Assembly (NCBI RefSeq): GCF_023055435.1 | Contig: NW_025964383.1 | Coordinates: 14,136,001-14,200,000, forward strand | Reading direction: 5' to 3' | DNA length: 64,000 bases | From: Haliotis rufescens | Lineage: Eukaryota | Shown: in pieces, positions 5,801 through 31,494 of the stretch | Numbering within the stretch: position 1 is the stretch's first letter | How the letters are laid out: each line of letters starts with the position of its first letter | Translations under genes and position numbers: made by a program | Notes under the pieces: model-generated | What the model was told of the DNA's origin: nothing | Seen by the model: only the letters and a program-made list of their open reading frames with translations | Database searches by the model: none

Positions 5801-6483
5801 TTCTAATTATGTTTAGGATAGGCATGATACCTGCTGAAACTTTGGTTGCAGAACACTGTATGTTTCTGAATACGTTACAAGTACTTGATGATGTAGTCAT
5901 TCAATAGAGGAGGAGATAGGAGCGATAGTTACATTTACTGATTTACAGAGGTCCATTCACATAATTTCCACAGCTATTTTGCCCTTTACGCCAGGTAGAA
6001 TCTCTTTCGGCGGATGATCGAGTCTGGTTGTTCTCTTGTATTTACATTTTATAATAGCTTTCTGTATTTCATTGCGAGTGTTTGACTTTGTAAATAAAAG
6101 AGAATATTTTCGTCAAAATATTAATACACGGCACGATTAAATGAGGGTTATTTTATATAGCAATATATTTATAAGCGGAAAACTGTCTAACATATTTGAG
6201 ACATTGGACCTAATACAAGTAAATTGAAGAGTCAATTAAAGAGTTCATTAAATAATGTTTCGAGGTTGGAGACTGGTGAAACCAGAAACGTAAGACTAAT
6301 GTTGTTTAATCCTCATAAAATTAATGCGCAAATCGTATCTACGTTCGAAATTAACATTGCAAATGGACACAAGCCAGTGATTCAGGAAATGTGAAGCAAT
6401 TGGTGTGGTATGTATTTGAAGTTGCAGCTATGTAAATTATGTACAGAAAAAACGATTATCTGATTAGTTTACTTCTGAAACAT

Positions 6484-6704
6484 TCAGAAGTTACTGCAGA
6501 GTATGACTGGCAAGAACAGTGCCGCAAGAACCAGAGACAGCACTCTCCCATGCGACTCAGCACTACTGCAGACAGTGGGTGTTTCCGTTGTCATGGGAAC
6601 GTAGTTCTCCAGCCAATCGTCGACAATTTCCTCCACGACATTCAGAGGCATCCTCCCGTTCTCAAGAATAACAGCGTGAAAATCCCGGACGTTAAACTGA
6701 TTCC
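6484..6704 (-). CDS. DUF885 gene terminal exon with GPI-signal-like tail
   Basis: [34 protein letters not shown]...[28 protein letters not shown]; ttccag acceptor. Confidence 0.88.
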
Positions 6705-9700
6705 CTGGAAACATATATTTTTGTATTTTAAACATTTGCTGTTCAAATGATTTAAATATTTAACCAATATTGAATGGGTGCAGCTTGAGTAACCCAAGAG
6801 AGACAATTATCTGTGAGATATACACATGCATTGGTAAAGGCTATAGGTGGCACAGCGTAGATGTGATGCCACGGTTCACTTGCAATTGCCACTTCCTGTC
6901 TGATTCCTGGCTTAGTGTGCGCTGCGACAGGTGTGACACGCAGAGAGACACGCTCATGTATTCTACCTTAAACCAACCAAAGTACAGTAGGTCAGCATTT
7001 GTCTTGTTTCATTTTGTGTCAATGAGCCCCATTGTCATGATAATGAATATTGTGTACGTTTGTGATCAAACCTATGAATGAATCAAATGTAGAACTGGAA
7101 AGGTAACAGTTCGGGTATCAACCAAACAAATTCCATGCACAAGTTAATACACAAAAGTTTGTTTTAATATCTGTTCAAGTAGTACCGCGTGTGTAATAAG
7201 AGAATGACTACGAGGAATTTCAGAGGACATGATACGAGTGAAATTAACCTTTACACATAATACACGCTTAATTCAAGAGGGACATATTATCCATAATACC
7301 AAATGTCGATTGGGTCATTTTTGTTATTACCCATATTTACAAAACGTATCGGCTTCCCCAAATGTAAGCCAGACGAGCGCTAGGATATCCTAGTATCCTT
7401 CCGCGTGTAAAACGCCATCTCGTGTGCAGAACACACCTTCTCAATTACGTTCTTATACGAGGTCTATGAGTAAATAGTCCTCTAAATATTTGCAGCAACC
7501 AAACACTTCAGGATGACATATAACACAAATATCACCCTTACTGTCCTTGTTCCAGTGAAAAAACTGGTCGTAATAATGGAAATTACTCAGCTCAAAAAGT
7601 CGTATAAAACTGAATTCAAGATTCTCAACAAACTCCTCCTACCAAGTCTTTGCTCTGCCCGTTTCCTCAGCTCCAGGATCTTCAGTTCGCCTATCTTGTA
7701 GGTGAGGGCCTGCCCTGGCCAGGTGATGTAGCGGTCAATCTCAGTCGCAGCTGTAGCGTAGGTGAAGGCTGTGTAGTTGAGGAAATACTGGATGGCCTGT
7801 TCTCTGTCCCAGCTGTAACACACACTCTTTCTCACAGTGGACAGTGGTAGTATTACAACCGTCCTAATGGTTAAACAAATTTGTTCTCTGTCCCAGCTGT
7901 AAATCACACTCTTTCTCACAGTGGACAGTGGTAGTATTACAACCGTCCTAATGACTTAACACAATCTGATCTCTGTCCCAGCTGTAAGACACACTCTTCC
8001 ACAATGGACAGTTGTAGCATTACAACCGTCCTAATGACTTAACACAATCTGTTCTCTGTCTCAGCTGTAAGACACACTCTTCCACAGTGGACAGTGGTAG
8101 TATTACAACCGTCCTAATGACTTAACACAATCTGTTCTCTGTCCAAGATGTAAATCACACTCTTGCACACTGGATAGCGGTAGTATTACAACCATCCAAA
8201 TGGCTTAAACATATATGTTCTCTGTCCCAGCTGCAACACACAGAGATCATCCTCGGAGTGGCAGGTCACGCGTAACCAATAATCGACAAGACAACTGGAT
8301 TCGAACAACACACCTACAAAATCGATTCCAGCCAGCAACAGTGACTGCAAGAAGCCTCCCTGGCCGTCGACGAATATCTACACAAACCGTATGTCGTCGC
8401 CTCAGATGTGCAGGGATTGTCGCCAGAAGACCCGCCAGACGTCCCATTTTGACAGGAAACCACCGTCAAGCACGTCTACAGTGTTGCAGACAGTGTCTAC
8501 CCTGGACGGCCATGCAGTGGGGAGAAGTTCTATTCACTGGCGAGTCTCGTTTTCACCTCAGCCACAGCGATGGACAGATTCGAGTGTACCGACGTCGAGG
8601 TGAACGTTACGTCAATCATTGTGTCATGGAAGAAGATCGGTTCGGGGGCGGCAGCGTTATGGTATGGGGTGGGATTACAGCAAGACAGAGGACCCGTTTG
8701 ATAGTGGTAGAGGGAAATCTCAATGGACAGCGCTACCGCGACGAGATCATCGATCCTGTTGTTCTACCGTTTTTGCGTCGTCATGGCCGAGGCATTACCT
8801 TTCAACATGACAACGCCCGGCCTCATATTGCTCGACTTGTTCAGGATTCTAAACGTCATCCCCTGGCCTGCTTGCTCCCCTGATCTCTCACCAGCACATG
8901 TGGGATGAGATGGATCGCCGCTTCGAAACATGCTCCAGCAGATATCACAGGACTTTGTGCGACGCCTGGTACATTCCATGAGACGAAGATGTGTTGATTG
9001 CATCGCAACCAGAGGTGGACACACACGCTATTGAATTGTAAATTGACAATTTGGCATGTTCATGTTTTTTATGAAATCACGCATTTTCTGAAGTCAGTAT
9101 GGCAAAGTAAACCATTTGAACACTTTCAGGAGTCTTTTATCTGTTGCAAATCGATATTGTTTCAGATTTGGTAAAAAACATAACTTTGCATTAAATTTTA
9201 TTCAATATCACAGGAACTTTTGTTGTTCAGTATACCTAGGGCTAAAGTTAGTCCTTTTGTCGAAATTCCTTTGTTTTGATTTTGACAATTCCGGGGGAAA
9301 TTCTGAGTGTTATGGCTGCTGATCAAACAGATCAGCAAGGAGGAGAGCACAATCGATGTTCATGGATGTGCCTACTTCTTGTCTATGAACCGCCTCCGTG
9401 GTCTAGTGGTAGAGCGTCCGCCCAGAGAGCGGAAAGTCCGGGGTTCGATCCCCGGCCACGTCATACCAAAAGACGTTAAAAGATGGTACTTGTTGTTACC
9501 CCGCCTGGCGCTCGGCTTTAAGGGGATAAAACAAGGACTGGTCGGCTCGTTGTCAGTATACAGTGTCTGAGTTTGATATTCATGTAAAACTGAGGCATTG
9601 TATCTCAGTGAGCTAGCACTATAACTCGGCATCAGTCCGGANNNNNNNNNNNNNNNNNNNNNNNNNNNNNNNNNNNNNNNNNNNNNNNNNNNNNNNNNNN

Positions 9701-12700
9701 NNNNNNNNNNNNNNNNNNNNNNNNNNNNNNNNNNNNNNNNNNNNNNNNNNNNNNNNNNNNNNNNNNNNNNNNNNNNNNNNNNNNGCAATAATTTCACGGA
9801 ATGTTTTCTCGGTAAATTTGAAATTAGCTTTCATATTTGACCAATTGTCCTAAACTTAGAAGGTGTAACTATATCTATGGTCATCCCATTTAGTATAATA
9901 TGCCCCATGGATATTGCCGTGTAGGATAGTGTACAAAGTTGAAAAATCAAATCAACATATTTAAACTTGGTTCTCCTCTGAAAACGCTCAAGCAAATCAT
10001 TTGATGTTTTTACACTCTACATGGTATTAACTCACTGATCTCAAATACTTTCTGCGATTATAATTTCGTGATTGTATTGATGATTTTGGTTAGTTTTTGA
10101 TACAGGGATTTGGTGGTATATTTGCTGGACCCAGCAATATCTCCCACTACGGATTTTAGTGGAGCTTTGGAATCCAGTAAAATAGAATGGACATGTATTC
10201 AGGTTTTGAAGCAAGATGATCGGTTGGGGCAGTTTTCTTCCTTGGTTAACACACTGGTCTATTTGTGGCATTACTTGTCATGTCACTTTCATCGACAATT
10301 TCTTTTTCTGAACAATACATATGGGGATGTTTACATGTACTTGTGGCCTTGACAGTGTAAACCTGTAGTGTGAGGCAGCTGGTTGAGACAAAACAGGTTT
10401 ATTTCATTTGCGTTTCCTGTTTGGAGGTTAATGACACAATACAGTTTCTTGTTTATGTATTCACAGTAGGGAGATTATTCTTAATTTAGCTTCTCGATGT
10501 ATTTATGTCTGCTGCCAACGGTAAACGGTTTGCCAATATTCTTGTCCATCATTTCAATCCATCTGCAATATGGTTTACAAAAGTGTATACTACGAATACA
10601 AATGGTGCTAATACGGAACGTTGAGGAAGACCTGCTGTAAAATAGGTTTCTTTTGACAGGATATCATTTATATCAACCCTATGTGGGATTACTTACATAA
10701 CGTTCTTCCTTCTTCAGTATCTTTATTTTCGCGTCCTTCTTATCTAGAAGACACACTCTGTCAATGGCATCATAGAACACAATGCAACAAAGTACTTTTG
10801 ATTCCCTATATATTACCCTATTATATACCGCTAGCTTGTAAATGTTGACAAAAGTGTGTCAGTTTATACAGATACCAATACATGTAAATGTATTTATCAT
10901 ATAATGGGTAGGTTTCTCGGCAGGATAAAGCCAACGGATAAAAACGATATCCGTTGGGGTCATATGCGGATAGAGATGCAAATATCAAAGGTCAAGTAGG
11001 GACTACTTTCACTGTTTATAAACAAACATGGCGTCGCCCTTGTCATTCGGCGATCGAGTCAGAATTAACCATCGGGAATCTGGATAAACTACAGGGATAG
11101 TTGCTATCATTATCAAAAGAACAGTCTAATATACTGAAAATCTGTGTCTAACTGTGACGTAGCTAAGGCATTTTATAAGTTTTGTCAACTTTGGAGATAT
11201 AAATTTCGAAACAATTTGGCGAGGGCACGAGGCCTAGCCAAGCGGGATCAGTAGCCATATCTGTGCTTGTAGACCTCTGCGGCTTGAAACCTCCTCCACA
11301 AATTAAAATAGTTGGATTTGGCGGAAATATGTTTGAATTGTTACCTTGTTTCGTTTTGTCGCTGTGTGTACATCTGACTACACTTCTTATTGTAATGACA
11401 GGACAGACCGACTGTCAACAACGTCTGACCGTGGCCGTGACGTCTCATAGACTAGGGTTAGAGTAGCTTCCCTTTGTCAAAGGGCAGTTACTCTAGCGGA
11501 CAGACCGATGGATTGCCGCGAAAGGCAATTAAAAACAATTGTTGTTTTGCGTATATGTTGCTTCGCCACTGTATAAGAAACAGATTTCAGTTTGAACTAT
11601 ATTGGCTACTGTCACTGTCCGACTGACACATCACTTACCCTGTGACGTAATAAATATTAATGCGCGCATTCCAGGAAAACTCGCAATGTTTCGGTAATGT
11701 TTGTGAGAGAGGGAAAGCGATTTTGAAGCACAGAATTAAAGAATGACATTATATGATAAAGAGGTTATCACGCTTGTGTGTTTGGGGATGGTAAATATCC
11801 TGTATTAGGAATAAACACTATGTATTTAGCTCGCCAAGGCTCGCTAAATACAATGTTTATTCCTAATGCAGGATATTTACCATCCCCAAACACACTCGCG
11901 TGATAACCTCTTTGTACCAGTGTATAGATATACTAATACCTGTAATTGTTGACAGAATTACTTGCGCCAGCTCATGAAAATATCATTACTAATGTTGGCA
12001 AAATTAGAAGTATAATTACTTGTAAATGTTGACAGAGGTGTGCCAGCTTTTGAATAATTTTTACGTATGCATTTTGGCAGATGTGTGTCAGCTCATTGAG
12101 ATGCCATTTATTGTAAAAGTTGGCAGTGGTTTTAGCAGTTGATAGACCATTACCTGTAAATGATGACCGGGGCTTGCTTCATGCAATGTTAGTGCCATCA
12201 AGCCGAATTTTGGTCTGAAAATTCATACAAAAATAACACGAGATCCTGACGACAAAACTGCAATATAACATGATTGAGAGAGGAGTTGAGAGAGATCAAG
12301 AAAAACGTACAACTTACAACCAAATATGTAGAAGAAAAAAGAAGAAACTACAATGTCTACAAAATCAGACTAACCATGTATTCATTAAGTCGTGAATTTA
12401 ACATGTTGCTATTTCAGTTATATTATACCATAATAATGAGTGTTGTACAGATCACACCCTGACTGCAATGATGTATAAACAGGTCATATCTTACATATCT
12501 CCAGGTCTCAGAACGTTTGCCGTAAAAGTTCCTGGTGTACGGCCGTCAGCAGTCCCCGTAGAATACGAGCCTTGTGGCCCATCATTCGCCCTCGCCACCA
12601 CGCTGAAATGTATCAAATTGATTGAAGATATATATCATTTTTGAATATTAAACGACCTTTTCCGACTTCTGAACTCTTCTCTACTTGTTATACGCAGCAG

Positions 12701-15700
12701 TCAGCAATATCCACGCTACATCATGGCTCTGTCATGTGAAACAAGGTCTGGGGTGAGAGAGAGTCCGAGGTAGGTAGCCGGACACTATCCCATTGGCGAG
12801 AAATTGTCCACCACGAGTAAGAGAGTGTGAATAAAAGTCCTGGCTTAAGAGTCTGTCAAATAAACCCTCCTCCTCCCTGTATTCAATATATCTGGGTCGC
12901 CAAGTGAATGTGACATAACAGGCTTGTTGTGACACCGCATCGGGTTTTCAGAATATATTCCATAAAGTCCATAACTGAATATCTGACACCTCATCTGACC
13001 CCTGCTGGGTTCTCTGTGAATATCCAGGACACATACATGCTGATATGTTCTTCCTGTTCTACAACCTTGGGGCGGTGGTTAGCCTTTTGGTTAAAGTGTT
13101 CGGACGATCCACCGAAGGTCCAGGTTCGATTTCCCACATGGTTACAATGTGTGAAGCCCATTTCTGATGACCTCGGCTTGATCTGGCCGGAATATTGCTC
13201 AAAGCGGCCTAAAACCCAGCTCATTCACTAACTCCCTACTGACAACCTCTACTCACATGATGGAAAGGCCTGGCAAGTCTTTGAAAAGTTTGGTGAGGGT
13301 AGGATCGACATCTCTGATGATCTGCCTGTAGGCCTCCAGTAGTTCTCCCTTAAACGAAGGCGTGGTTTGTAAGATTGCAGATGAATTTCCCTATAATGAT
13401 GACTCATTCATTGAGACACATATCAAGGGCAGTCAGTGCCACATTGTGTTATCGCGTCGAAGGCGTCTACTTATTACATCAGTTTCAACCACAGCGTAAA
13501 TGAACCGACGTCTTGTGATATTATACCATGTCCAGTTATGTATAAGGGAAGACGCGATATTATATTTTAATCTCCAAATAGTATCTCGTGTCCCCGGATG
13601 GAATAGCATTATCTTTTTCATCGTCTTCCTTCCGCGGTTCCGCAAATGACATTTGTAACGTTAGTACATGTCCAAGGAAACGATGGGAATCTGGGCCCTG
13701 GGTTATATGAGACATGTGTTGTGGAAACTAAATATCGTCTGATACCTGTGGCATAGAATATAAGCGTCTTCTTACACATTTTATAAATAACATAATTGTT
13801 TTACCCCTGTGTTGTAGAAATATTGGGACTGATTCATGACGACAGTGAAGTATTCCCTGATGGAGAGGTTGTAGCCCTGTTTGGTTATTATCTTGAAGAA
13901 GAACACTACTACATCAAAAGAAATTGTTGACACATGTATGTCTAATCACCAAATTGTGATAATAAGTAAATAAAATTACAACAGTTCAGGGGATACAGTG
14001 TGTCATAACTGGTAAATCAGAGGTGATGCACATTGTGATCTGTTTTGGGCAACGTTGTGAAAATCGACCAAATACATTTTGTAAAGTTGAGTGACGCCTC
14101 CTAAATCTAGCTGTTGCAATAGCTTTGCGTTATGTATCAAACTTGTGTCTTCAAACACTCATTTACCAGTAATAATAGATTTCCAAGAATATACTTGACA
14201 AAAATAATTATGCTTCAGGCCGTTGAAATCAAAACAGATGGTCTGCCACAAAAATACATTGTTGCAGTTTTATGCCTCATTCCGTTGAAATAAAAACAAA
14301 TGGTCTGCCACAAAAAAAATCATTGTTGCATTTTTTATGCTTCAGGCCATTGAAACAAAAACAATTGGTCTGCCACAAAAATACATAAAGTTAAGGCTCA
14401 TATCTGGTTTCGCATCTGTAACTAAAGAACTATCTAGTCATCCAAATTCCCGGAACAGTTACCCAAACATGACGATTTACCCTCCCCATTAAGATTTACC
14501 TCCTCCATCAACATTTGCCTCCTCGTCAAGATTTACCTCCTCCATGTACATTTATCCCTCCATGAAGATTTACCTCATCCATGAAGATTAACCCCATCCA
14601 TGATGATTTACCTCCTCTATCAAGATTTACCTCCTCCATGAAGATTTACCGTCTCCATGTAAATGTATCCCTCCATGAAGATTTACCTCCTCCATGAAGA
14701 TTTACCTCCTCCACGATGATTTTCCCTGCATGATCATTTACCCCTCCACGGTGATTTACTTCCCCCATGAAGATTTACCTCCTCCATCAAGATTTACCTC
14801 CTCCGTGTAAATTTATCCCTCCATGAAAATTTACCTCCTCCACGATGATTTTCCCTGCATGACCATTTACCCCTCCACGGTGATTTACTTCCCCCATGAA
14901 GATTTACCTCCTTCATAGTCATTTGCCTCCTCCATGATGATTTACCTCTCCATGGAGATTTACCCCTCCATCGAGATTAACCTCCTCCATGGAGATTTAC
15001 CTCCTCCATGAAGATTTACCTCCTTCATGAAGATTTACCTCCTCCATGATGATGTACCTCCTCCATTATAATTTACCCCTCCATGAAGAATTACCTCCTC
15101 CATCAAGATTTACCTCCTTCATGAAGATTTACCTCCTCCATGATGATTTACCTCCTCCATGATGATTTACCCCTCAATGAAGATTTACCTCCTCCATGCA
15201 AATGTACCCACCCCATGAAGATTTAAGTCTCAATGCAGATTTACCTTCATCATGAGTTGTTCTATCCGAGCAACCTCCCTCTTCCCCGTCTCATGGACGT
15301 CCTCTGGGGTGGTGTCCAGTGAGAGGTACGCCTTCATGCACGCCTTGTAGTACTCCCCGCCGTTGTGTAATGAACTGACGCCGATACCAGAACGAGTCGT
15401 GTAGTCCAGTTTACATGCATAGTGACAGTCATACATTGAACCGTACATGTATGTACTCTGCCAATGGTATCATATGTATGTAGATAAGTAGATATTGTGA
15501 ATTACATCGCTGTGAAACACTAGACATTTTCTATTTACTTACATAAACATAAAAAAAATGTTAGTATAATGTTTCACTAATGTATTCGGACTACGCCCTG
15601 TCTTATGTGCTACTTTACTGACTTTTCATCAACAGATAATGGCATTTAATGTATATATAAATAGTATTACGATAACATTATTTTTGCAATGAAAAGAGGA

Positions 15701-18700
15701 CAACAAGCAAAAATAGAGCTAGATATACTTCTAAAAAGAAACCCTTGAATATTAAGGCACCCTCAAGTCTCTTAGCTGACACTGGGATGAGTAGGCTGCT
15801 AGAGCTGAGAAGGGTATGAGAGTAAAATGGTGGTAAATGTTTTATAGCATATATCCTCGGATACAAACATCCGTCACTGCATTGATAACATAGTTTCTAC
15901 CACACTCTAGTATACTTGTGTACGGTGATATTAGATCCTGTCCTCTAGTGGTTACGCTATTATTGCCATAAATAGTTGTATACATACATTCGTCAGATAC
16001 GATTTCAGATCCCTCAAGCTGTCCAGAGCTGATGCAATGGCGGATGTTGCTCTGTCGATGACTGTTTGCCTGTCAGCAGAACAAGAAGACATTGTTAATA
16101 TTACATTCTACGTTTTTGTTTCATCCGCTGCAAATTCCAAGGGCAACCAACTTTATCGTCGAGATACATTCACACACACTCCAAGAGGTCTCACGTTGGT
16201 CATTTGGGCTTTATTCTGCCTCGAATCCCAGTACTTGTGGGTCGTTAGTCCACATACAGAGCACTTCAGATTACTGATGACAAACCACAACACTTGACGT
16301 CTATAACATTGAAGACGAGGTCATTCATTTATCTTTATACATGTAGGTCATTGGGTTTTTATGTACTTAGGTCAACTTGTGCCATACAGAAAACACAATT
16401 TGTATTTAGTTGAATAAAATAATATCACCCTTCCCCATGGTTTATAGGGGTTCATTTGCTCATCAGATTACATGACGTGTGCTATACCTCTCTGTATCAC
16501 TAAAGCCGATCGTGTTGTTTTCCACGCTTTTGATGAAGGGTTTGTACAATGGTGACATCTTGTTGTCTGCGATATTGGTAACTTGGTCAAACTGCTCTGG
16601 TAACCGAAACTGAAGTGACACAACATCAATCATATTTCCCTCTGATATCAGACACAATATAGTACCATGTGAAGCCCGTATCTAACTTTTAGTGGTGATT
16701 TTTCCTCTGTTATAAAGGCTGGCTAAAATCAGAATAGAATCCCACTCGGCTCATCTTCATCCAACAAGTCATAAAGAAGAATCCATATTGGAACTGATTC
16801 GCTAGTGTCGCTAGTTCACATGACTATCGCTTTACACTTGGTAACCATATATAATGTCGTTTTATATCGGCTTATATACTTAAATTCTGTTAAACAAATA
16901 AACTCTATTTTTTTCAAAATCGACCCTTAGCACGAACTATATGTTATGAGGTATTACAGTGAAATCGTGCAATATAACTTTTCCATTTCTGGAGGAAATA
17001 TGTGAGTATGAGGCAGGATGAAAGCCGTGCCCTGTGTTCCCCAGTAGCCCAGCACACTTGATACTCCCTGGCTACCCATACGTCACTACCGCGATAATAC
17101 GATTCTTTTGCCGCAGCTGTCGGGTTGATCTCGCCATTATAGTCTGATAAGTAGGTGCTGAGTTCTGACTAGTTGTGTACATGCCCTCTAAACTACAACT
17201 ATATATGGTATATTTTTACCGTCTACTTTTATGCGTACCATGGATGCATTGTGGTACTTTGTTCCATTTTGCACGGCTTGCTGGAAACTCTCTTTTATCT
17301 CAGATATCTGTGTAAACGTAACACAACAATTGAAAACAACTGGAATATATTTTGTTAAGCAACGGAAAATGTAACTCATTTAAAGTTCAATTAATATATA
17401 TTTATTCTGAAATTAAACCATGCATTTTTAAAAAAATATATTGATGAATACATCTCCTCGACATTAAGGTTGTGATTCACAATTTGCACGTGCATGTTAA
17501 AAAAAGGCGCATAATTAGGATGTTTGCGTGTTTGTTTGTGCATGATACTCACACACCTGTTTTACAAATCTATCAGGTGGTCGTTAAAACATACGTTTAA
17601 CCGTGAATAACGCCTGAGTGATGTCGCGGCGTGCTGACAATCAACGTCAACACGCCTAGGGTATGCTGCAAACAGGAGCACAACGAAGTTGCCAGACATA
17701 ATATAATCTCCTTGGAAACATTATGCCACGGGCTGGTCGTCCAGGTGTGACGTCGATTGGTGCATCTAGGAATACTAGTATATTGATACCAAACTGCCAC
17801 ATTAACAGCTCGGACTACTCCTGGGTTGAGACCAATTAGAGGTAGAAACGTAGGCAACTCGGTGATTGAGCGCAAGATCCGGTACGGAAGTCAAGAAATA
17901 TGCCCTATGTTCAGGCACCCCTAGCTTGGTGTAGACAGCTTCCTTCTCAAGTTCAGAAGACAAGACATGGACAATATATTGTTCACAGATGAGTCCAGGT
18001 TTCATATGGGCAGCTCTAATCGTCGTGCATCCAGGATGTTTTAGCGACGCTTGCGTTACACAACGCCGGCAATTTGGAGAGGGGAGTATAAACTCATCAT
18101 TGTTAATGGCAATTTGAATTGCTTACGCTATCTGGACAAGTTCTAGCCTTTGTGCAAATTCAGGATAATTCCCGCATCACTTGTTGCATGTGTTGTAACA
18201 TACTTTTTTTGAGACAGCATAACAATGCAGTACTACCATGGCCTGCTGCCCCACATAGAACATATTTGGAATGAGATGGATCAGACGCCAACGACATGAT
18301 TAGAATCAACCTGCAGCTGTAACGCTAGCTCAATTGGTCCAATCTTTGCTTTACATTTGCGCCAATAGTGTTGGCTGGCTATTAGCGGTACGGAAGACTC
18401 CCCGAGTTAGTTCCCTTGTCTTCGCTCTCCTGTTCCACCTTTTGTACCCGCCTCGTGGTTTTCGAAAAGAAAACCTCTGGCAACCGAAAAACCTCTCCAT
18501 CTTGTGTCCCAATCGTCAGTGGTCTAAGAGTGTCCGTCAAACCTTACTGGCGTTGGAACAACATCCCCAAGGCTCAATCATCTGGTATCTTCAGTGCACC
18601 GCCTCTGTATCTGCGCAAAATGGTGTCACACCCGATATGGATATTGTTAATTGAGTTGTTACGCCATCCCTCTTTTAGGGCGTGTCGATCTGTAACCAGG

Positions 18701-20887
18701 TATGCGTTTCGTCAATGAATGTCTTATGATAAAACATTGAGCAGACGAATGACCAAATAGTATGTTGACCAAATACTAGATGAATGCATTTTAGAATAAA
18801 AATATTTGTGAATATATGGATATAAGAAAATGATGACTACATACCAGGAGGACAAAAGCTGTCATAAGAAATGTTTCAGTTCAAGTGATAGGAACTGTTC
18901 TCTCTTTCGCTATATTGCATTCACTACCTTCCATTGTAAATATAAAACGTCTTCATCATCCTCCAAAACAGATTTCATTTGCCGCAAAGGGCAATTAGCT
19001 GTGAAAAATCTATGAATGGATCACTGAAAAGCCATGAACACCCTAACCCGAATTTATTATCACCATTTGAAATTCCAGAAAAAAGCTGGAATAAATTCTT
19101 TCGCCTAAGAGTTTACAAACTTATTATTGTTGAGTTACCTGTTGTGGCAGCAAGGTCAATCTGTGAAGGTAGTTCTCCACATCTTCCCTTGTGTTCATTG
19201 GGGTGCTTGTCATCCGGGTCACATCCTTCTGAACTCCCTCAAGGAAGTTTACGGGGTTCAAGTTGACGTAACTGAAACAGGAAATCTTGCATCACCATCT
19301 TTTATTATAGAATATTATCATTACTTAGGCCACCTTAAGGGTAAAATAGATTTATTTACTCTTTATTGAATGTCTATTTGATACCGAAAAGCATTCATTG
19401 CAACGCGTCTGACTCCATACGGAAATCTGGTGATCTACAATCAGTAACTGAGGTCTTGTGCTGTGCACCGAAGTAGATTTAATTTGCCCTTGTGTACAGG
19501 ATGAATTTGCAGACAAAATATTATACTATGCATTATACATTTTACTATGTTAGAATATGTTAAAATGTTAGAATATGCTAGTATCACTTCTGCCATATGA
19601 ACAAAGATGTGTTTGAATCTAGATATCTAAGGTGTCATGCAACACCATGGTCTCCTGCAGCCCTACTCCATTCGGATAAACATTTGTTTTATTTTTCTCA
19701 TTAGGATCCGATACGTATCAATGTATGTGCGTTTGATCGTTGTAAGGAATTGATACTGCTATGTTGACAATGCATTCGGTGGATAGGGACATTACAATGG
19801 TATCTGTGGATATGTCATGTCTAAATTATCATTTCTTTTATATATCTTTTTGTAAGCTCGTTTGTGATGTCGTCAAACTTATCTAATTTTAAAATTGTGC
19901 ATTTTTAGCATCAATTATTTCAATCTATTACTGAACTTACTTAAACGTTTATATTATGAATATGTAATTGCATATCATTAAGAGAGACGGAAAACAATTT
20001 ACAATTTGCGCTGTTGTCTCATACAAAGTCACTCCTTTGAAGTAACAATAGACTTGAATTTAGAGGGAGAACTCAGCTAGGCGCGTTCCTGGGAATACAA
20101 TACGTCAATGTTTGCATGGCTATGTGTTTGTCGGTCGGCTGTAAGACATATTCATAGTGTTGTTACCATAACTCTGTTAAAAGTTTGTTTTCCAAAGACA
20201 GGTAATCTAATATCTGTTTAAACTCATCCTTATAGTCAAAGCATGTTGATATAACTATCACATATCCGTTTTCAACTCACAATCGCCACTGATACCCGTC
20301 TCGAAAGGCTTCTTGTGTGTAGCGGAGTACTTTGAAGCTGATTTTATCCTGACGGGGAAGCTCCACCTCCGAGATGTTTACCAGGCGCTCGTATAGCCCG
20401 TCAACAAAGTCCTACGGCAGACAACGCCAAACAACACAACGTTATGTACACATGACCTAGTTATGTACTGCAGTTAAGATCTAAACACTGAAGTGAGTCT
20501 ACATCATCTCCCAAGTATGAAGCAGGTAAAGTATTGTTTAACCTGCTCCATACTCGAATGGGCTGTTAACCGATCCCAATCCAGCGCCCTTTATAAAATA
20601 TATATAATGTAATCCAATCATCAATGCAACTTGCTGAAACGAAAACATATGCTGTTCAAAATAACGATTCTGTATTTTATATATTTAATACATTTAAATA
20701 CACCTGCAATATAATAATCCATGTCAGTATGCTGCTTAAAATGTTCATATCTGGTGTAGTTGAAGGACTTTAGGCGGTCGTTGAAGGTGTAGACGTTCCT
20801 TGAAGTCGCTGATCTTGGCCGCTGACTCAGCCGCCATGTTTGGAATTCATCAGCCAATGGAAGCCAACCTTTGACTGCTTGTTTCAT
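6484..20887 (-). CDS. DUF885-family protein (putative zinc metallopeptidase-like) with GPI-anchor-like C-terminus; spliced, >=13 exons; 5' end and 1-2 internal exons not found
   Basis: Phase-consistent exons, mostly GT-AG, in transcript order: 20887-20735 ([39 protein letters not shown], donor unclear); 20411-20281 ([16 protein letters not shown]); 19271-19139 ([29 protein letters not shown]); 17307-17239; 16609-16488; 16069-15988; ~15457-15245 ([45 protein letters not shown]); 13891-13805; 13348-13257; 12602-12495 ([19 protein letters not shown]); 12214-12154 ([15 protein letters not shown]); 7812-7643 ([26 protein letters not shown]); 6704-6484 ([18 protein letters not shown]..hydrophobic tail, stop). 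HExxPGHH, EIDRYxxWPGQAxxYKxG and FHxxxLxxGxxPL are DUF885 hallmarks. Confidence 0.9.
7643..7812 (-). CDS. DUF885 gene penultimate exon
   Basis: [57 protein letters not shown]; ttacag acceptor, gtagga donor. Confidence 0.9.
7795..8240. repeat. 83-85-bp tandem array (~5.5 copies) that includes a DUF885 splice acceptor
   Basis: tctctgtc(c/t)c starts at 7801, 7885, 7970, 8053, 8136 and 8219. Confidence 0.92.
8243..9234 (+). mobile_element. 5'-truncated Tc1-family transposon
   Basis: PRSGRx[40 protein letters not shown] and a frameshifted [10 protein letters not shown]; end GGHTRY*; right end ...ttgttcagTA. Confidence 0.9.
9390..9641 (+). mobile_element. tRNA-derived SINE, family A (runs into N gap)
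   Basis: A box tggtctagtggtagag, B box ggttcgatccc; homologous to 47892-48278, 57625-57925 and 59716-60042. Confidence 0.85.
9790..10700 (-). mobile_element. Degenerate Penelope-like retroelement reverse transcriptase fragment
   Basis: Minus-strand remnants [21 protein letters not shown] and [11 protein letters not shown], typical of PLE RT. Confidence 0.75.
11758..11913. mobile_element. 156-bp near-perfect palindrome (MITE/foldback-like); half copy at 59583-59658
   Basis: aaagaggttatcacg...atttagctcgcc aa ggctcgctaaat...cgtgataacctcttt. Confidence 0.85.
12154..12214 (-). CDS. DUF885 gene exon carrying the HEASPGHH putative metal-binding motif
   Basis: tttcag|A CCA AAA TTC GGC TTG ATG GCA CTA ACA TTG CAT GAA GCA AGC CCC GGT CAT CAT TTA CAG|gtaatg. 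Confidence 0.9.
13069..13235 (+). mobile_element. Diverged SINE family B
   Basis: ggggcggtggttagcc..ggttcgatttcccacatggttacaatgtgtgaagcccatttctg..ggaatattgct. Confidence 0.8.
14208..14390. repeat. ~63-66-bp tandem repeat, ~3 copies
   Basis: ttgaaa..aaaaca.atggtctgccacaaaa occurs three times. Confidence 0.8.
14475..15260. repeat. 19-bp minisatellite gatttacctcctccatgaa (~40 copies) abutting a DUF885 splice donor
   Basis: Direct reading. Confidence 0.95.
17560..18365 (+). mobile_element. Degenerate Tc1-family transposon in a DUF885 intron
   Basis: Fragments [19 protein letters not shown] and IEHIWNEM with stops and deletions. Confidence 0.8.
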
Positions 20888-20964: not shown

Positions 20965-23900
20965 GATGGTGGTGGTGGTGCTTGGTGATGGTTTGATGTT
21001 CTTTTTTGGTGATGGTGGTGCTTCTTTGTAGTGGTGGCTTTGGCACTTTACGGTGGTTGTTGATGCTTTGTTTGGTGTTGATCGTGCTGGTGGTTGTGTG
21101 GTGGTGGTAGTGCTTGATGTTGTTTGTGGTGGTGTCTTTTTGCGGTGCTTGATGGTGCTGCTAGATTGTGGTGTTTGGTGGTAGTGCAGTTTGTGCAGAT
21201 GGTGCTACGTGTTTGGTGATGGTGGCGCTTACGGTGCTTGCAGTGGTGATGCTTTGTGGTTAATGCTTGGTGTTCTTGTATGCCGATGGTCAATCTCTCC
21301 GAGATTTATGAGAATTTATTTTGTGTACGTGTGACGAGCACCATTTCTGTCACCTTCGATAAGTGCCGCCTTAACATCAACTGTTCTCAGATGAAGCATA
21401 TCGTAATAGTCATGCATTTTTAATAATGATAATAATAGCCCATTTATGCGTTTTTGCTTGGTAGTGGTTGTAGGGTTGTTGTGCTTTGTGATGACAGGTT
21501 GTTGTGGTGGTTGGTGTCGGTTGCCATGTTTATGATGCTTGGTAGTGATGTTGCGTGGTGGTCGTTGTGGTTGGTATACTTGGTGCTGGTCGTGGTGCTT
21601 GGTGGTGGCTGCGGCGATTGGTGGTGATTGGGATGCTTGGTGGTTGTGGTGGTTGGTGGTATTGTCGTTGGTGGTGCTTTGGTGCTTTGTTGTTGTTCAT
21701 CTTGATAGTGATGGTGGTGATGGCGATGGTGGTGTTCCATGGCGGTCCTGGGTTGTGACGCATTTTGTTGGTACTGGGTTGTGGTGATTGGTGGTGCTTG
21801 GTGGTTGTGGTGGTTGGTGGTATTGTCGTGCTTTCTGGTGGCGATGTTTGATAGTGGCGATGGTGGTGCTTGGTGAAGGTGCTGGTTGATGTAATGCTTT
21901 CAGGTGGTGATGCTTGAAAGTGGCGATGGTGGTGCTAGGTAAAGGTGCTGGTTGATGTAGTGCTTTCTGGTGGTGATACTTGATGGGGGCGGTGGTGGTG
22001 CTTGGTGAAGGTGCTGGGTGGTGTAGTGCTTTCTGGTGATGATGCTTGATGTTGGCGGTGGTGGTGCTTGGTGAAGGTGCTGGTTGATGGAGTGCTTTCT
22101 GGTGGTGATGCTTGATAGTGGCGATGGTGGTGCTTGGTGAAGGTGCTTGGTGGTGTGGTGCTTTCTGGTGATGATGCTTGATGGTGGTGGTGCTTGGTGA
22201 TAGTGGTGGTTGATGGAATGCTTTCTGATGATGATGCTTGATAGTGGCGATGGTGGAGCTTGGTGAAGGTGCTGGTTGATGTAGCGCTTTCTGATGATGA
22301 TGCTTGATAGTGGCGGTGGTGGTGCTTGGTGAAGGTGCTGGTTGATGTAGCGCTTTCTGGTGATGATGCTTGATAGTGGCGAAGGTGGTGCTTGGTGAAG
22401 GTGCTGGTTGATGTAGTGCTTTCTGGTGGTGATGCTTGATAGTAGCGGTGGTGGTGCTTGGTGAAGGTGCTGGTTGATGTAGTCCTTTCTGGTGGTGATG
22501 CTTGATAGTGGCGATGGTAGTGCTTGGTAAAGGTGCTGGTTGATGCAGTGCTTTCTGGTGGTGATACTTGATGGGGGCGGTGGTGGTGCTTGGTGAAGGT
22601 GCTGGGTGGTGTGGTGCTTTCTGGTGATGATGCTTGATGGTGGCGGTGGTGGTGCTTGGTGAAGGTGCTGGTTGATGGAGTGCTTTCTGGTGGTGATGCT
22701 TGATAGTGGCGATGTTGGTGCTTGGTGAAGGTGCTTTCTGGTGATGATGCTTGAAGGTGTTGGTGCTTGGTGAAGGTGCTGGTTGATGGAATGCTTTCTG
22801 GTGGTGATGCTTGATAGTGGCGATGGTGGTGCTTGGTGAAGGTGGTGATTGATGTAGCGCTTTCTGGTGGTGATGCTTGATAGTGGCGGTGGTGGTGCTT
22901 GGTGAAGGTGCTGGTTGATGTAGTGCTTTCTGGTGATGATGCTTGATGGTGGCGGTGGCGGTGCTTGGTGAAGGTGCTGGTTGATGTAGTGCTTTCTGGT
23001 GATGATGCTTGATAGTAGCGGTGGTGGTGCTTGGTGAAGGTGTTGGTTGATGCAGTGCTTTCTGGTGGTGATAATTGATGGGGGCGGTGGTGGTGCTTGG
23101 TGAAGGTGCTGGGTGGTGTGGTGCTTTCTGGTGGTGATGCTTGATGGTGGGGGTGGTGGTGCTTGGTAAAGGTGCTGGGTGGTGTGGTGCTTTCTGGTGA
23201 TGATGCTTGATGGTGGGGGTGGTGGTGCTTGGTGAAGGTGCTGGTTGATGGAGTGCTTTTTGTTGGTGATGCTTGATAGTGGCGATGGTGGTGCTTGGTG
23301 AAGGTGCTGGGTGGTGTGGTGCTTTCTGGTGATGATGCTTTATGGTGGTGGTGCTTGGTGATAGTGCTGGTTGATGGAATGCTTTCTGGTGGTGATACTT
23401 GATGGGGGCGGTGGTGGTGCTTGGTGAAGGTGCTGGGTGGTGTGGTGCTTTCTGGTGATGATGCTTGATGGTGGCGGTGGTGGTGCTTGGTGAAGGTGCT
23501 GGTTGATGGAGTGCTTTCTGGTGGTGATGCTTGATAGTGGCGATGTTGGTGCTTGGTGAAGGTGCTTTCTGGTGATGATGCTTGAAGGTGTTGGTGCTTG
23601 GTGAAGGTGCTGGTTGATGGAATGCTTTCTGGTGGTGATGCTTGATAGTGGCGATGGTGGTGCTTGGTGAAGGTGGTGATTGATGTAGCGCTTTCTGGTG
23701 GTGATGCTTGATAGTGGCGGTGGTGGTGCTTGGTGAAGGTGCTGGTTGATGTAGTGCTTTCTGGTGATGATGCTTGATGGTGGCGGTGGCGGTGCTTGGT
23801 GAAGGTGCTGGTTGATGCAGTGCTTTCTGGTGATGATGCTTGATAGTAGCGGTGGTGGTGCTTGGTGAAGGTGTTGGTTGATGCAGTGCTTTCTGGTGGT

Positions 23901-25120
23901 GATAATTGATGGGGGCGGTGGTGGTGCTTGGTGAAGGTGCTGGGTGGTGTGGTGCTTTCTGGTGGTGATGCTTGATGGTGGGGGTGGTGGTGCTTGGTAA
24001 AGGTGCTGGGTGGTGTGGTGCTTTCTGGTGATGATGCTTGATGGTGGGGGTGGTGGTGCTTGGTGAAGGTGCTGGTTGATGGAGTGCTTTTTGTTGGTGA
24101 TGCTTGATAGTGGCGATGGTGGTGCTTGGTGAAGGTGCTGGGTGGTGTGGTGCTTTCTGGTGATGATGCTTTATGGTGGTGGTGCTTGGTGATAGTGCTG
24201 GTTGATGGAATGCTTTCTGGTGGTGATGCTTGATAGAGGCGATGGTGGTGCTTGGTGAAGGTGCTGGTTGATGTAGTGCTTTCTGGTGGTGATGCTTGAT
24301 GGGGGCGGTGGTGGTGCTTGGTGATAGTGCTGGTTGATGTAGTGCTTTCTGGTGGTGATGCTTGATAGCAGCGGTGGTGGTGCTTGGTGAAGGTGCTTGC
24401 TGATGTAGTGCTTTCTGGTGGTGATGCTTGATGGGGGCGGTGGTGGTGCTTGGTGAAGGTGCTGGTTGATGTAGTGCTTTCTGGTGGTGATGCTTGATAG
24501 CAGCGGTGGTGGTGCTTGGTGAAGGTGCTTGCTGATGTAGTGCTTTCTGGTGGTGATGCTTGATGGGGGCGGTGGTGGTGCTTGGTGAAGGTGCTGGTTG
24601 ATGTAGTGCTTTCTGGTGGTGATGCTTGATAGAGGCGATGTTGGTGCTTGGTGAAGGTGCTGGTTGATGTAGCGCTTTCTGGTGGTGATGCTTGATGGGG
24701 GCGGTGGTGGTGCTTGGTGAAGGTGCTTGTTGATGTAGCGCTTTCTGGTGATGATGCTTGATAGTGGCGATGGTGGTGCTTGGTGAAGGTGCTGGTTGAT
24801 GTAGCGCTTTCTAGTGATGATGCTTGATAGTGGCGGTGGTGGTGCTTGGTGAAGGTGCTGGTTGATGTAGTGCTTTCTGGTGGTGATGCTTGATAGTGGC
24901 GATGGTGGTGCTTGGTAAAGGTGCTTGTTGATGTAGTCCTTTCTGGTGATGATGCTTGATAGTGGCGATGGTGGTGCTTGGTGAAGGTGCTGGGTGGTGT
25001 AGTGCTTTCTGGTGATGATGCTTTATAGTGGCGATTGTGGTGCTTGGTGAAGGTGCTTGTTGATGTAATGCTTTCTGGTGGTGATGCTTAATTGTGGCGG
25101 TGGTGGTGCTTGGTAAAGGT
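20965..25120. repeat. (TGG)n-derived GT-rich region; 66-bp unit array ~21828-25120 (~50 copies) with an 831-bp higher-order duplication
   Basis: Unit ggtgcttggtgaaggtgctggttgatgtagtgctttctggtggtgatgcttgatagtggcgatggt; variants at 22561/23392 and 22711/23542 are offset by 831. Confidence 0.95.
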
Positions 25121-26199
25121 ACAGGCCAGGCCCGAACACTATAAAATGATACCTTCAACATTAGGAGAGGAGAGCGCGGTTTGCTATCGATCGAGTCGAA
25201 TCCCGATCGTTCTAAGTTTCTACCAGTTAGTGACTAGTCTTGCCGGTCTGATCCTGTCCTGCATTGACAGATGGGCTGAGAGTAAGTAAAACTATGTGAG
25301 TATAAAACTGGTGTTGCGTTTCTTTATTATGCGTGTTTGAATGCTGATAGAGACAACTTGGAGTAAGTGTCGTTAGACCAATCACTCCTACACGGAGCCG
25401 AGCCGCGGCGGACAAGGCGATCGAGTGGCGATGTCTGGCGTAATTGACCATATGGACCAGGAACGGCAATACATTTAGTAACTGTATTAGGGTCGCACTG
25501 GACGCCCGAAAGCAGTTACGACACTATTACGAAAGACTGTCTAGAAAGGGATATATATTATGGGTACATTCAAAGTGTTTTGTTAATATGAAATTACAAT
25601 GCTTTTGCATGTACACTTTCAATCGATTTTTGTTGGTGCCTCAACCCAATACTTGTGAAGTAATCTAAGTTAAACAAAGTATTGCTACCTCTATCGCATC
25701 ATTAATATGTATTTAAGTTTTTCTTTCATATATTGTCAAGAACCTGGTGGACCGTATTTTGAACACACAATTGATTGGACCAACAGAAGCCGACAGTATG
25801 AAGACATGAAAACGTTATTGCCAAATATGTGATTGTGACGGATCTCACCGATAGGGCAGGACTCGCACCTTTTTGCGAACACCTTGTAACATCTCTTTAT
25901 CATATGGATTTACATGTATATTTTACTGTCGAAATCATACAATGGATTATTGAAAGGGTTTGCATATTTAAGTTAAAAGGGTATTCATTTTTTTTCGGCG
26001 GCAACTTCTATTAAGATCTTAAAACATTGTTTTCCTGCCTTTAGTGTGTTTCATTGTGATCACTATTCTTGTCATATTCTGGGGCGGTCGGGAAGCCTAG
26101 TGGTTATAACGTTCGCTCGTCACGCCGAAGACTAGGTTTAGATTCCCGACATTTCTGATGCGATAGATACGATTTGCAGAAATGTATACTAATACAACT

Positions 26200-26580: not shown

Positions 26581-29539
26581 TAAAGATGTATTACAATCCA
26601 AGCAGTACCAAAAGGTGCTCCCACGACCAGGCTCACATAAATACATAACAATATACTGTACAGGTATGGAAAATACCTGACAGTGAACATTTTCATTAAG
26701 TTGTACCTTTTTCAGGATTGCGTTCAGGAAATAAGAAGAATGGCAGATTACCTGGGACGCCCTCTACAGGATCAAACATACCAGGCGATATCCGATTCTT
26801 GCTCTTTTAAGAATTTCAAGCGCGCAAATGAAATAATAAAAGATCAAACCTTCCACTTTCATAGGCAAGGTGGTTCAAGTGGATACTTCAGAAAAGGTAA
26901 CTGGAAAACTGAAACTAAAACCTGATCACAAGACAAGGTACCTGTGTCTAGTTTGCAGTCTCTGTCCGTTTGTAATTATCAAATATTTTAATGTTTGAAA
27001 AACAACATCAAATATTTTATTTGGGATAACAATTTCTTAGAAAAGTACAAATTCTAGTACATTTTCGCGTTGAGTCCCATCCGAGATTTGAACCCACACT
27101 CTCAGAGTTAGGTACCTAATCGCCAGCACACAAAGTCAGCGATCTAACCAACTCAGCAACCGAGGTTTCCGCTAGATATACCGTTTATATAAAACACGTC
27201 AGCACTGCGGTATTTTACAGGAAATGTAGAAATATATAAGCAAGTTAAGTATCAAATATATTCATGAACCAAATAAATATGTTGTGTTACAGGTAGAACT
27301 GGTGACTGGAAGGACTGGTTCACTGTGGCCCAGAACGAGCGATTTGATAAAGTATTGATTATATGTGAAAAGTAAATATTTTTATTTCGAGGCATCCAAC
27401 CAGTGCAAAGGCCAGGGTTTAAGGCTTACTTTATCCGAATGCCGCAGCTTACAAATGAGAAAACACGTGTCACAATGACCCTATTTACGATAACAATGAC
27501 CTGAATTAGTGAATATATTAATCCCGTTCCCATCAGCGCATGCGAGAGCGTGTTTCGGCAACGCCTGATATTCTTATTCGTTATGCCGTCATATAAGGTT
27601 CATCTCTGACACGTTTGTCAGGCCAAGTAAAAAAATAGTTTGGGCTGTTCCATATAGGTGAATCAAACGAGCATAGATTATTAATTATTTATTATTAATA
27701 TTTATTAAGTAACAGTCGTCGGGCAAGCACAGGCGCTTGAACACCAGCTTCATTCCACGGTCTCCTGTGATCATGGACAACGTCAGCTTGACGTTGTTTG
27801 TTTGGTGTTTAGCGCAACAGCAATATTACAGATAGACAGATGGATAAACAACATGCGCATCTGTCCACACAACTGGGATATGATGACATGCATTGTCACT
27901 TCTTTCGTAGTATACATGAGTGAAGGACATTGAACATTTTTTGGTCTTTTTTTTTTGACATTCAACTTGATGACAACATCGCATGGTGTTTTAGTGAATT
28001 TGTCTAGTCATTAACATATGAAACAAATAAAGCATCTGTGCTCGCCTGGCATAGATAAAACAGTCGATACTCACTCAGCCCTTCGAGTTTGCGCAGTTCG
28101 TTGTTGCTGAGGAGTGAAATGTTGTTTAAAACTTGCGACTATCACAGCAACATTCACTAACAATCTTACATGCTTTTCTACGTCAACTTCACGTCACACT
28201 CAATAAACAACGTATCGTACCACTTTTAACCTTAGGTCAGCTGAATTGTTTGATAGGCATTTCTTAAAAGTTGACGGATGACAAATTACAAATTAATTTT
28301 ATGGATAGCAACTTCATTATTTTACTGTAAAGGCGACGATTCGGTATAGATCCTTATACCGTTGTCAAGCAAGGATGAATAATGAGCATGGTACAGAATA
28401 TGTATAGTAGTTGGGGGGTTAACAGAAACGCTAATTGCATTCATCAGAGAGATTAACGTCAGTAGGTCAAACAATGACAACAGAAGGGTGATACTGTAAC
28501 CAGATGATGGACAGAGAACACATGATGAGGAAGCGAAAAAGACTGATAGCGAATGGACAGGATTTAGTGTACATACGTGGGGTGATTGTTGGGTCAGCTA
28601 CAAACATAACAAAACTTGCGTTTTTCATTTTTGCGACGTCATGATATATTCTCCCTTGATGGGAGAACAAATCACATTTCTTTCAAAAACTAATGTTTTT
28701 TCAAACCCTATTGCTCCATTGACGTAGTGTTCCCGTTGAATACAGCGGATGTGAAACACTTATGTTTATTCTAACATTCCCGACCGGAGTGCATGTGGTT
28801 CAAGTTTCATGACACTGAAAAGCTTATTTAAAGGTATAGGGACCCTCTTTACATCCATTATTCATTTTGAGCACTTGCCTCGGAAAGATTGATAGAGGAT
28901 CGTTTCAATTTGGAATATTTACCACGTTTACTTGGTTGTACGGTAAAATGAGTATATCTTATCCTGAACATTATGAAAAGTTTTAATTATTAGTGTAAAA
29001 TTTGTGGACAGTCAAAACTTACGTCATAAAATACAGCTTTAAAACTGTGTGATAATTATTGCAAGGATATTTTGGATCTGTATGGCATCATATACTAGGA
29101 ATGACAATATCATCTGTCATCCGTTCAGATTGTCATTGATATCGGCGACTTCTAAATTACAAACGGAGAGTGTTACTGGAAGGTAGGGAGGCGACAGGGA
29201 GACAGGGTAGCAATATACGATGCCAGCAAAATTGACAAATTGTTGGTGGTGCCTGGATGCAAACAGGGAAAATAGTGTTGGGCATGTACTTGCTGTTCAG
29301 TGACATATTCAGTTGAAGAGGAGACTGCAATGGATTACCTCGGTGGGTGTATTTACCATGGATTGTCTGTGATACATGTGATATGCGATTTATTGCGAAA
29401 AATAGTGATTCGGAAAGGACACTACGAGCTTCACCCTATTGGATCCTACAGATACTGTATATGGTAAGTCTCATTTATAGTAATTTCAATATTTAGCTAT
29501 TTGTACAACTGAATCTGATACATGTTTATTATTATACAA

Positions 29540-29701
29540 GTGAGTGAGTGAGGTTTTACGCCGCTTTTAGCAATGTTCCAGCAATATCACGGCGAAGGAC
29601 ACCAGAAATGGGCTTCACACATTGTACCCATGTCGGGAATCGAACCCGGGTCTTCGGCGTGACGAGCGAACGCTTTAACCACTAGGCTACCCGACCGCCC
29701 C
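29540..29701 (-). mobile_element. SINE family B with 15-bp TSD
   Basis: TSD tttattattatacaa; empty site in the duplicate at ~43201. Confidence 0.92.
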
Positions 29702-30939: not shown

Positions 30940-31400
30940 AAGGGTGAAGCAACCAGTTTTCCTTCCACTGATTTCTCCCACCTGAGGCTACCAGTTACAC
31001 GGCTTCATCTCTTTCACATTTAGCTATATGCACGAGGATTCAGAATGAAAAGAAAAACTATCCACAAGAATGTATGACAAGAGGGATGACTTCAACTTTC
31101 AAATAGTTTACTTTATATCGAGCGATATTCCAGCAACTCCAGTCTTTGGTGTCTATATTTCACAACGATTGAGGTAAAATCGACTCTTTCTCTAAACACG
31201 TTTTATGGTAGACATGTGGACATTGCCATAACAATACACAATTCCCTATTTTGACTTGTACCATATTATCATACACATTTTAATGTGATCATCGGACTTA
31301 CCTTTAGATGTGTCTGTGACAGGTACCATCTGTCAGGCAGGATGCGCTCACCTTTTTTTGGAAGACCTGGTTACATCACTATTTGATAGTGATTCACAAA
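30940..31400 (+). mobile_element. Penelope-like RT C-terminal fragment (copies ~32980-33480 and ~44040-44320)
   Basis: STRMYDKRDDFNFQIV..DIPATPxFGVYISQR resembles the PLE motif YDKRDDFNFxIVNFP..PAYGVYISQ. Confidence 0.75.
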
Positions 31401-31494
31401 GACATGTTTATGACATAAACGGAATTATACATTGGACTCTGCTTTTAGAAGAGATTTCTTATGTTAAAAAGGACGGCTTTTTGTCGTTTTCACT

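Follow-up and report, generated by a model that had tools for sequence, protein, structure and literature searches.

A young, disrupted and probably non-coding duplicate of a DUF885 gene in Haliotis rufescens, and the predicted zinc peptidases encoded by its intact sisters

A 64-kb window of the Haliotis rufescens genome (assembly GCF_023055435.1, contig NW_025964383.1, positions 14,136,001 to 14,200,000) carries on its minus strand, between window positions 6484 and 20887, a locus of the DUF885 family (PF05960), which is very probably a young, 5'-truncated and internally deleted unprocessed segmental duplicate of a 17-exon gene and likely a non-coding pseudogene. This copy, W, has introns and flanks in common with an intact parent and also carries disabling lesions, the combination by which unprocessed pseudogenes are recognised. 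The intact relatives tentatively suggest a wider picture, in which animal DUF885 proteins may be zinc carboxypeptidases not yet recognised as a family, sharing a seven-residue HExxPGH motif, dating from before the cnidarian-bilaterian split and occurring in cytosolic, secreted and glycosylphosphatidylinositol (GPI)-anchored forms, the anchored form having expanded in molluscs and their relatives by birth-and-death duplication into cell-surface peptide-trimming enzymes with an ACE2- or M32-like role. The DUF885 family itself is already annotated in databases, as uncharacterised.

The window copy, its lesions and its sisters

A search with the C-terminal exon identified P0010, a Haliotis rufescens protein of 631 residues with 96% identity, and the genome holds four near-identical copies, of which A and B lie about 6 Mb from W on the same contig and C lies on another contig. 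The sister genes LOC124126558, LOC124125479 and LOC124124763 (P0010, P0125 and P0123) resemble W in about 95% DNA identity over exons 2-3 and in their intron positions, and differ from it in having 17 exons with canonical AG/GT splice sites, no indels and whole 631-residue frames. Translation of copy A through its 17 GT-AG exons gives P0010 exactly and that of copy B gives P0125 exactly, while the whole frame of copy C equals P0123 from residue 23. No product of W is among the seven listed members of the protein cluster.

Five lesions of four kinds were counted in W (exon numbers follow the intact sister gene). At window positions 8241/8242 the alignment to copy A skips from 28638 to 31856, a loss of about 3.2 kb that takes exons 13-15, comprising 245 coding bases and residues 421-501 with the EGWALYAE motif, and that leaves a Tc1-type transposase remnant abutting an 83-bp array. 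These exons hold 23 of the 82 positions conserved in at least 90% of 142 homologs, E456 among them, and the absence of their 245 bases sets the phase-0 end of exon 12 against a phase-2 start of exon 16. Exon 2 (20735-20887) contains one extra base (+1) near 20856, and its orthologous frame ends after 11 codons at a stop (20852-20850). The exon-2 donor (20733-20734) reads CA, a two-base change from the GT of all three sister copies, and the exon-8 acceptor (15407-15408) reads TG where all three sisters have AG. Exon 1, which encodes the signal peptide, and exons 13-15 were not found in the window or within 10 kb on each side, where blastn with 7-base words gave chance hits only; across the genome, exons 2-3 are present in four copies, and exon 1 and the exon-13 acceptor region have three matches each, none of them at the window locus. 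A run of N at 9642-9784 (143 bases) was considered as a hiding place for the lost exons and rejected, as it lies opposite sister intron sequence and therefore cannot hold them.

Alignment of P0010 to the window places 13 exons between 20887 and 6484, the number given by the first-pass annotation; the frame breaks at 20856/20857, and residues 1-21 and 422-500 find no counterpart. Exon 2 is followed on the minus strand by exons 3 (20281-20411), 4 (19139-19271), 5 (17239-17307), 6 (16488-16609), 7 (15988-16069), 8 (15245-15406) and 9 (13805-13891); by exon 10 (13257-13348), with the changes E334G and P362S relative to all sister copies and two other abalone species; by exon 11 (12495-12602), with P369A; and by exon 12 (12154-12214), which encodes HEASPGHH (12183-12160) and thereby H411, E412 and H417 in the numbering of the intact protein. 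Exon 16 (7643-7812) lies beyond the deletion, with a further 12-residue motif at 7742-7707, and exon 17 (6484-6704) encodes FHAVILENG (6681-6655), a Thr/Pro spacer, CSSA (6570-6559) and a hydrophobic stretch (6543-6499) before the stop codon (6486-6484). The 3' untranslated region spans at least 6000-6483, the RNA-type contigs continuing beyond 6000, and is 93-94% identical to those of the three sisters. The named motifs lie on the minus strand within the annotated stretch, and all seven named NxS/T sequons are present.

The assignment to DUF885 also stands: at the curated Pfam cut-off of 32.4 bits, two of the five exon stretches tested pass on their own (exon 16 with 82.6 bits, exon 8 with 33.5 bits; a third reaches 23.1), and the sister protein reaches 408.9 bits across profile positions 1-531. 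The claim that the 13 exons are phase-compatible does not survive. Although 22 of the 24 splice ends are still canonical, an open frame through canonical GT-AG exons is interrupted by the extra base, the CA donor, the TG acceptor and the step from phase 0 to phase 2, and a forced join of the 13 exons, read from the ATG at 20887, yields 423 residues before a stop, ahead of the EIDRY motif and the tail. Measured against the DUF885 family, W lacks an open frame as well as residues 1-20 and 421-501. The working ectoenzyme proposed for this locus is contradicted by the missing signal peptide, the missing exons with the predicted third ligand and the two frameshifts, and as a decayed duplicate the locus is unsuitable for cloning or modelling as a gene. 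It also serves as a caution that a reading of sequence alone can stitch a plausible protein across a deletion of catalytic exons.

The duplicated block that contains W extends over at least 34 kb with counterparts at the sister loci, and runs at least 9 kb beyond the window start, collinear with copy C. Intron 1 contains a 66-bp tandem array (21824-25120), and the resemblance to the sisters does not extend beyond its upstream edge at about 25120, which places exon 1 and the promoter outside the window copy. The block sits among sulfotransferase exons, and its upstream flank is a different neighbourhood from those of the sisters. Intron divergence between W and each sister is 4.3-5.2% over about 3.7 kb, compared with 3.6-4.8% among the sisters themselves, and this low value indicates that the copy is young. 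The ratio of non-synonymous (pN) to synonymous (pS) divergence is 0.31-0.35 in the three pairs that include W and 0.18-0.23 in the three pairs that do not. Copy-specific changes of W include L104Q and G144E besides E334G, P362S and P369A.

An intact gene or allele that assembly errors have made to look broken is a very unlikely account of W. The lesions are read from a single assembly, coding divergence from the sisters is small (pN 0.011-0.019) and indels of one base are typical of sequencing errors, but such errors would have to account for five lesions of four kinds, including a clean loss of 3.2 kb and a donor altered at both bases, in a copy whose introns differ from those of the sisters as much as the sisters differ among themselves and whose upstream flank is different.

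Transcription of W from the ATG at 20887 through cryptic sites, yielding a regulatory RNA or a shortened, catalytically dead protein without a signal peptide, is likewise improbable. Owing to the extra base, exons 2-12 can be read in frame from this ATG (400 codons), acceptors that restore the frame occur at 7826 and 7910, most splice ends are canonical and an alternative first exon is possible at 21399; three cryptic sites would nevertheless be needed together, the promoter and exon 1 are absent, and the product would be without residues 421-501, that is, without model helices 452-468 and 475-499. RNA-type contigs from four runs of four studies bridge 10 of the 12 introns in every run, and in one run they also bridge an eleventh. 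In every run they break at 13347, the site of a W-private change, and for two runs the letter shown is T, the sister letter for E334. For the contig join between 7812 and 12154 the intervening sequence is given as 'not known'. Ahead of exon 16, one contig has 1517 letters, compared with 1505 for exons 1-15 of copy A and 1200 for exons 2-12 of W; another has 381 letters ahead of exon 16, does not include the exon 9-10 join, and fits a sum of 245, 61 and 75. From these lengths and the sister letter, the contigs fit the sister copies better than W and appear to hold the missing exons, with the limit that contigs drop rare forms and so constrain a W transcript only in part.

Several observations weigh against a young pseudogene. 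The lesions are known from one assembly only, and cryptic sites could keep a frame, namely the ATG at 20887, weak phase-0 donors at 20708 and 20702, and the acceptors at 7826 and 7910. The excess of amino-acid change in W is not significant (10:5 versus 15:19, Fisher p 0.22), and four of the ten 'private' W changes are also found in another abalone species. The RNA nature of the runs is a guess, none of them being on record as an RNA source, and an intron-2 join is not among the contig rows shown.

Two side observations concern the same part of the locus. The 83-bp array (7797-8242) consists of the repeated exon-16 acceptor and first codons, creates the cryptic acceptors at 7826 and 7910, and is longer in copy C. 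A short ATG-started, exon-like piece at 21399-21354 on the minus strand, with a phase-1 donor, matches the first exon of the P0123 model; it encodes no signal peptide and has little contig cover.

Fold and predicted active site of the intact copies

The structural analysis applies to the intact sister protein, which was folded in place of the window copy. Besides DUF885, no Pfam family matches the sister protein at E <=0.05, NCBIfam gives nothing over its cut-off for three proteins, and a search of the ESM Atlas returned DUF885 clusters only. The model is helical, with a predicted local distance difference test score of 93.1 and a predicted template modelling score of 0.89. In searches with Foldseek and VIA, the three solved DUF885 structures come first (Z 42.6, 34.9 and 29.9), led by 3o0y with a template modelling score of 0.80 and a root mean square deviation (rmsd) of 2.5 over 556 residues. 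These structures, from Colwellia (3o0y), Arthrobacter (3iuk) and Shewanella (3u24), have the same fold and the same HExxPGHH, EGW and RY..WPGQ motifs as the sister protein; compared with the bacterial proteins, the spiralian animal copies add a C-terminal GPI-like tail and many sequons. Next come MATCAP (Z 14.2, rmsd 5.1-5.3, 244-253 residues aligned), the M32 enzyme BsuCP (Z 13.9, rmsd 4.7, 354 aligned), M3 (Z 12.4) and M2 (Z 10.5), and nearly all listed fold matches are gluzincin-type peptidases. DUF885 is assigned by Pfam to the Peptidase_MA clan, as stated in a source that also gives a prediction for one DUF885-named protein (PMC12572635). The gluzincin-like fold named in the first-pass annotation holds for the intact sister copies; the window locus has lost the exons with the predicted third metal ligand.

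In an alignment of 142 homologs, H411, E412, G416, H417, G457, W458, Y461, E463, R491, R529, Y530, Y540 and K541 are invariant, E456 is present in 140 (two have gaps) and H418 in 140. Position 415 is proline in 141 of the 142, and the canonical HExxH of M32 is absent: the HExxPGH motif places five residues between its histidines, and the helix that carries it is broken at 413-416 in the model. The spacing is three residues in the canonical motif and four in TMCP/MATCAP and DPP III (PMC10499314, PMC7804941). E456 sits on model helix 452-468, providing the intact protein with a downstream glutamate on a helix, in a segment that is deleted in W. The predicted zinc ligands, in a deep helical cleft, are H411, E456 and either H417 or H418, E412 would act as the general base, and on this model the intact copies are probably zinc peptidases.

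Their closest comparison outside DUF885 is MATCAP/TMCP1 (KIAA0895L), which also has a lengthened zinc motif and a third ligand in an xEG context (EEG in TMCP, PMC10499314), corresponding to (V/I/T/S/G)EGW here. The two differ in the motif itself (HExxxH in MATCAP, HExxxxH here), share 13% identity, and act in different settings, MATCAP on tubulin in the cytosol, whereas these proteins carry secretory signals. The M32 carboxypeptidases, the M3 oligopeptidases and M2 (ACE/ACE2) have the whole-length helical gluzincin-type fold in common with the sister protein (Z 13.9, 12.4 and 10.5); their canonical HExxH is absent from DUF885 proteins, identity is 8-14% and there is no profile match.

By analogy with these enzymes, there is about an even chance that the intact copies are carboxypeptidases that would trim C-terminal residues from extracellular peptides. 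This reading follows from MATCAP and M32 being the nearest characterised folds and from the presence of R491, R529, Y530, Y540 and K541, which could hold a terminal carboxylate, a role that we presume for these Arg, Lys and Tyr residues from M32 and ACE enzymes. A lesser though substantial possibility is that the intact proteins are metal-dependent without being carboxypeptidases, for instance an M3- or M2-like oligo-endopeptidase or peptidyl-dipeptidase, an amidase or a peptide-binding protein. M3 and M2 lie within a few Z units, the HExxxxH spacing matches no characterised family, and the neighbours of 78 prokaryotic homologs reveal no shared pathway, with one recurring downstream frame that has no Pfam match. 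The metal and base residues, however, are all invariant, the two best fold matches outside DUF885 are both carboxypeptidases, and FFAS gave M32 for a spider homolog (PMC7682650). Large neighbour clusters of the prokaryotic homologs were discarded as shadow frames over the DUF885 gene itself.

Any peptidase reading is tempered by the low fold scores, since Z of about 14 for a helical protein is barely above the chance range of the tool (Z near 13 can arise by chance) and identity is 11-13%, and by the M32, M3 and MATCAP sequences, which give no profile match at E <=10.

Two groups can be told apart in the alignment (A1) by the distance from HExxPGH to EGW, 32-35 residues in the first and 44-47 in the second, and this loop of 11-12 residues near the active site may set specificity.

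Termini, distribution and descent of the animal proteins

P0010 has a hydrophobic N-terminus, eight sequons, the small residues C604-S605-S606-A607, a spacer, a hydrophobic stretch from V613 to L627 and the ending RSNF. It thus combines small omega residues, a polar spacer and a terminal hydrophobic stretch that is followed by four residues. A signal peptide would take the intact protein into the secretory pathway, with N-glycosylation at the eight sequons, and in the intact copies the tail, judged by its composition, would quite probably be cleaved near S605-S609 and replaced by GPI. The tail described in the first-pass annotation is accordingly real as sequence and valid for the sister copies, which have the hydrophobic N-terminus, but W, with exon 1 absent, has no signal peptide and does not encode an ectoenzyme. 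Removal of the tail would give a secreted form, making DUF885 function directly testable.

A hydrophobic tail is found in 51 of 66 rows of the spiralian branch and in 2 of 23 other rows of the animal-containing clade. Outside that clade it occurs in 2 of 53 rows, both molluscan and missing from the tree, which leaves 0 of 50. The remaining animal copies are secreted without a tail or have neither signal nor tail. In 35 of 55 tails a cysteine stands ahead of the omega region. Signal and tail together mark the mollusc, annelid, brachiopod and nemertean branch at the level of predicted sequence features, and we infer that the anchored form arose later than the family, mainly in the spiralian branch. 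Against this stands the looseness of the tail and signal calls, which come from simple hydropathy rules without a shuffled control, the omega rule finding a site in 54 of 55 tails.

Other layouts were seen alongside the anchored one. Secreted gastropod paralogs without a GPI tail (P0141, P0153, P0161, P0163, P0170, P0176 and P0180) end in an I(I/V)G-type motif (PIVG, NIIG, PNIG, VMIG or SAIG). A separate animal subfamily of about 576-583 residues (P0190, P0194, P0200, P0219, P0224 and L019) has neither signal peptide nor tail and is probably cytosolic, with a likely member in the abalone genome. Bivalve, isopod and chytrid models (P0001, P0002, P0005, P0007, P0008, P0235, P0238 and P0243) contain two or three tandem DUF885 domains, as in somatic ACE, and may be real or fused gene models.

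The abalone genome contains at least 19 DUF885 loci, comprising 18 separate over-cut-off matches to the C-terminal exon and one further locus, which most resembles a 587-residue homolog that groups with signal-less mollusc copies. With the three intact sisters, these loci give access to a large, unassigned, metallopeptidase-like family, and its zinc motif exceeds in length that of every neighbour compared. Named homologs occur in gastropods, bivalves, a chiton, Lingula, Owenia, Lineus, Priapulus, crustaceans, horseshoe crabs, Ptychodera and Nematostella, and also in chytrid fungi. Prokaryotic homologs show 30-39% identity and amount to 11,995 clusters at E <=0.001.

In a FastTree phylogeny of 402 domains covering at least 430 profile positions, a threshold at which Nematostella dropped out, all 90 named-animal tips fall in one 162-tip clade (support 0.999) with none of the 76 named prokaryote tips. 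In an IQ-TREE phylogeny of 63 hand-picked rows, 18 animals and 10 unnamed rows form one branch (SH-aLRT 96), and 28 named prokaryotes and one unnamed row form another (95); two of the rows (P0310 and P0344) carry the label 'prok' without evidence. A clade with two named chytrids lies between animals and prokaryotes in this tree and stands apart, with weak backbone support, in the 402-row tree. Both trees are unrooted, lack names for their deepest members and include, among prokaryotes, the nearest ones only. Within that sampling, no donor lineage for a transfer into animals appears, and the animal sequences are neither nested in bacteria nor confined to a narrow set of hosts, as a recent transfer would predict. 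On these trees, the animal proteins are one old lineage, not the product of a recent bacterial transfer, with either vertical eukaryotic descent or ancient transfer behind them, and the family is inferred to have been present in animals before the cnidarian-bilaterian split.

These results bear on the proposal that the window locus is a working GPI-anchored ectoenzyme derived from a bacterial gene, with GPI in place of the lipoprotein anchor. In its favour, prokaryotic homologs are close and far more numerous, and DUF885 figures among the candidate transfers in Dictyostelium (PMC3188802; 10.64898/2026.03.01.708701). For W the proposal is refuted by the broken locus, and it is extremely unlikely in view of the single animal clade without named prokaryotes, the lack of a donor lineage and the deeper animal branches, which are mostly tail-less. 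The exchange of a lipid anchor for GPI is too direct an account, as most of these deeper branches have no tail, many are without a signal peptide, and a lipobox is seen in few of the aligned bacterial-type homologs. The description 'bacterial-type' named the right family and is overstated, given its spread in animals and chytrid fungi and an animal clade without any sampled prokaryote. A 6-kb contig attributed to Heimdallarchaeota bears a DUF885 gene (L041) that groups with Chloroflexota and not with eukaryotes.

The description of the animal homologs as essentially unstudied agrees with the literature, in which they are list entries. An abundant 599-residue DUF885 protein has been reported from spider venom, FFAS pointing to an M32-like fold (PMC7682650), and a 606-residue transcript from a snail venom transcriptome (PMC11359391). 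Both are secreted and of about 600 residues, like the animal copies here, and the accessible text of these sources presents them as list entries only, with no activity shown and no GPI form mentioned. A fungal DUF885 fusion is mentioned in 10.1101/2021.04.19.440407. The literature search found no study of animal DUF885 activity or of a GPI-anchored subfamily; supplements, which lay outside the search, could list these genes.

Neighbouring features of the window

The 66-bp array in intron 1 contains minus-strand open frames of up to 1037 codons with HHHQKALHQPAPSPSTTT repeats, and is much shorter or absent in the sister copies. The open frames at 21700-25233 were considered as a mucin-like exon and rejected, as the array is open in all three frames and the sister mRNA models skip it.

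Remnants of Tc1/mariner-type transposases lie at 8209-9030, 17600-18300 and 61321-62050, identified by a PF01498 match for 8209-8880 and elsewhere by resemblance. Exons of cytosolic sulfotransferases lie on the plus strand at 26641-26922, 37240-37533, 39231-39506, 47591-47881, 49890-50270 and 51826-52101; they form a tandem cluster with a spacing of about 12 kb, in which three of four tested stretches match PF00685, and further copies are present on both sides of the window.

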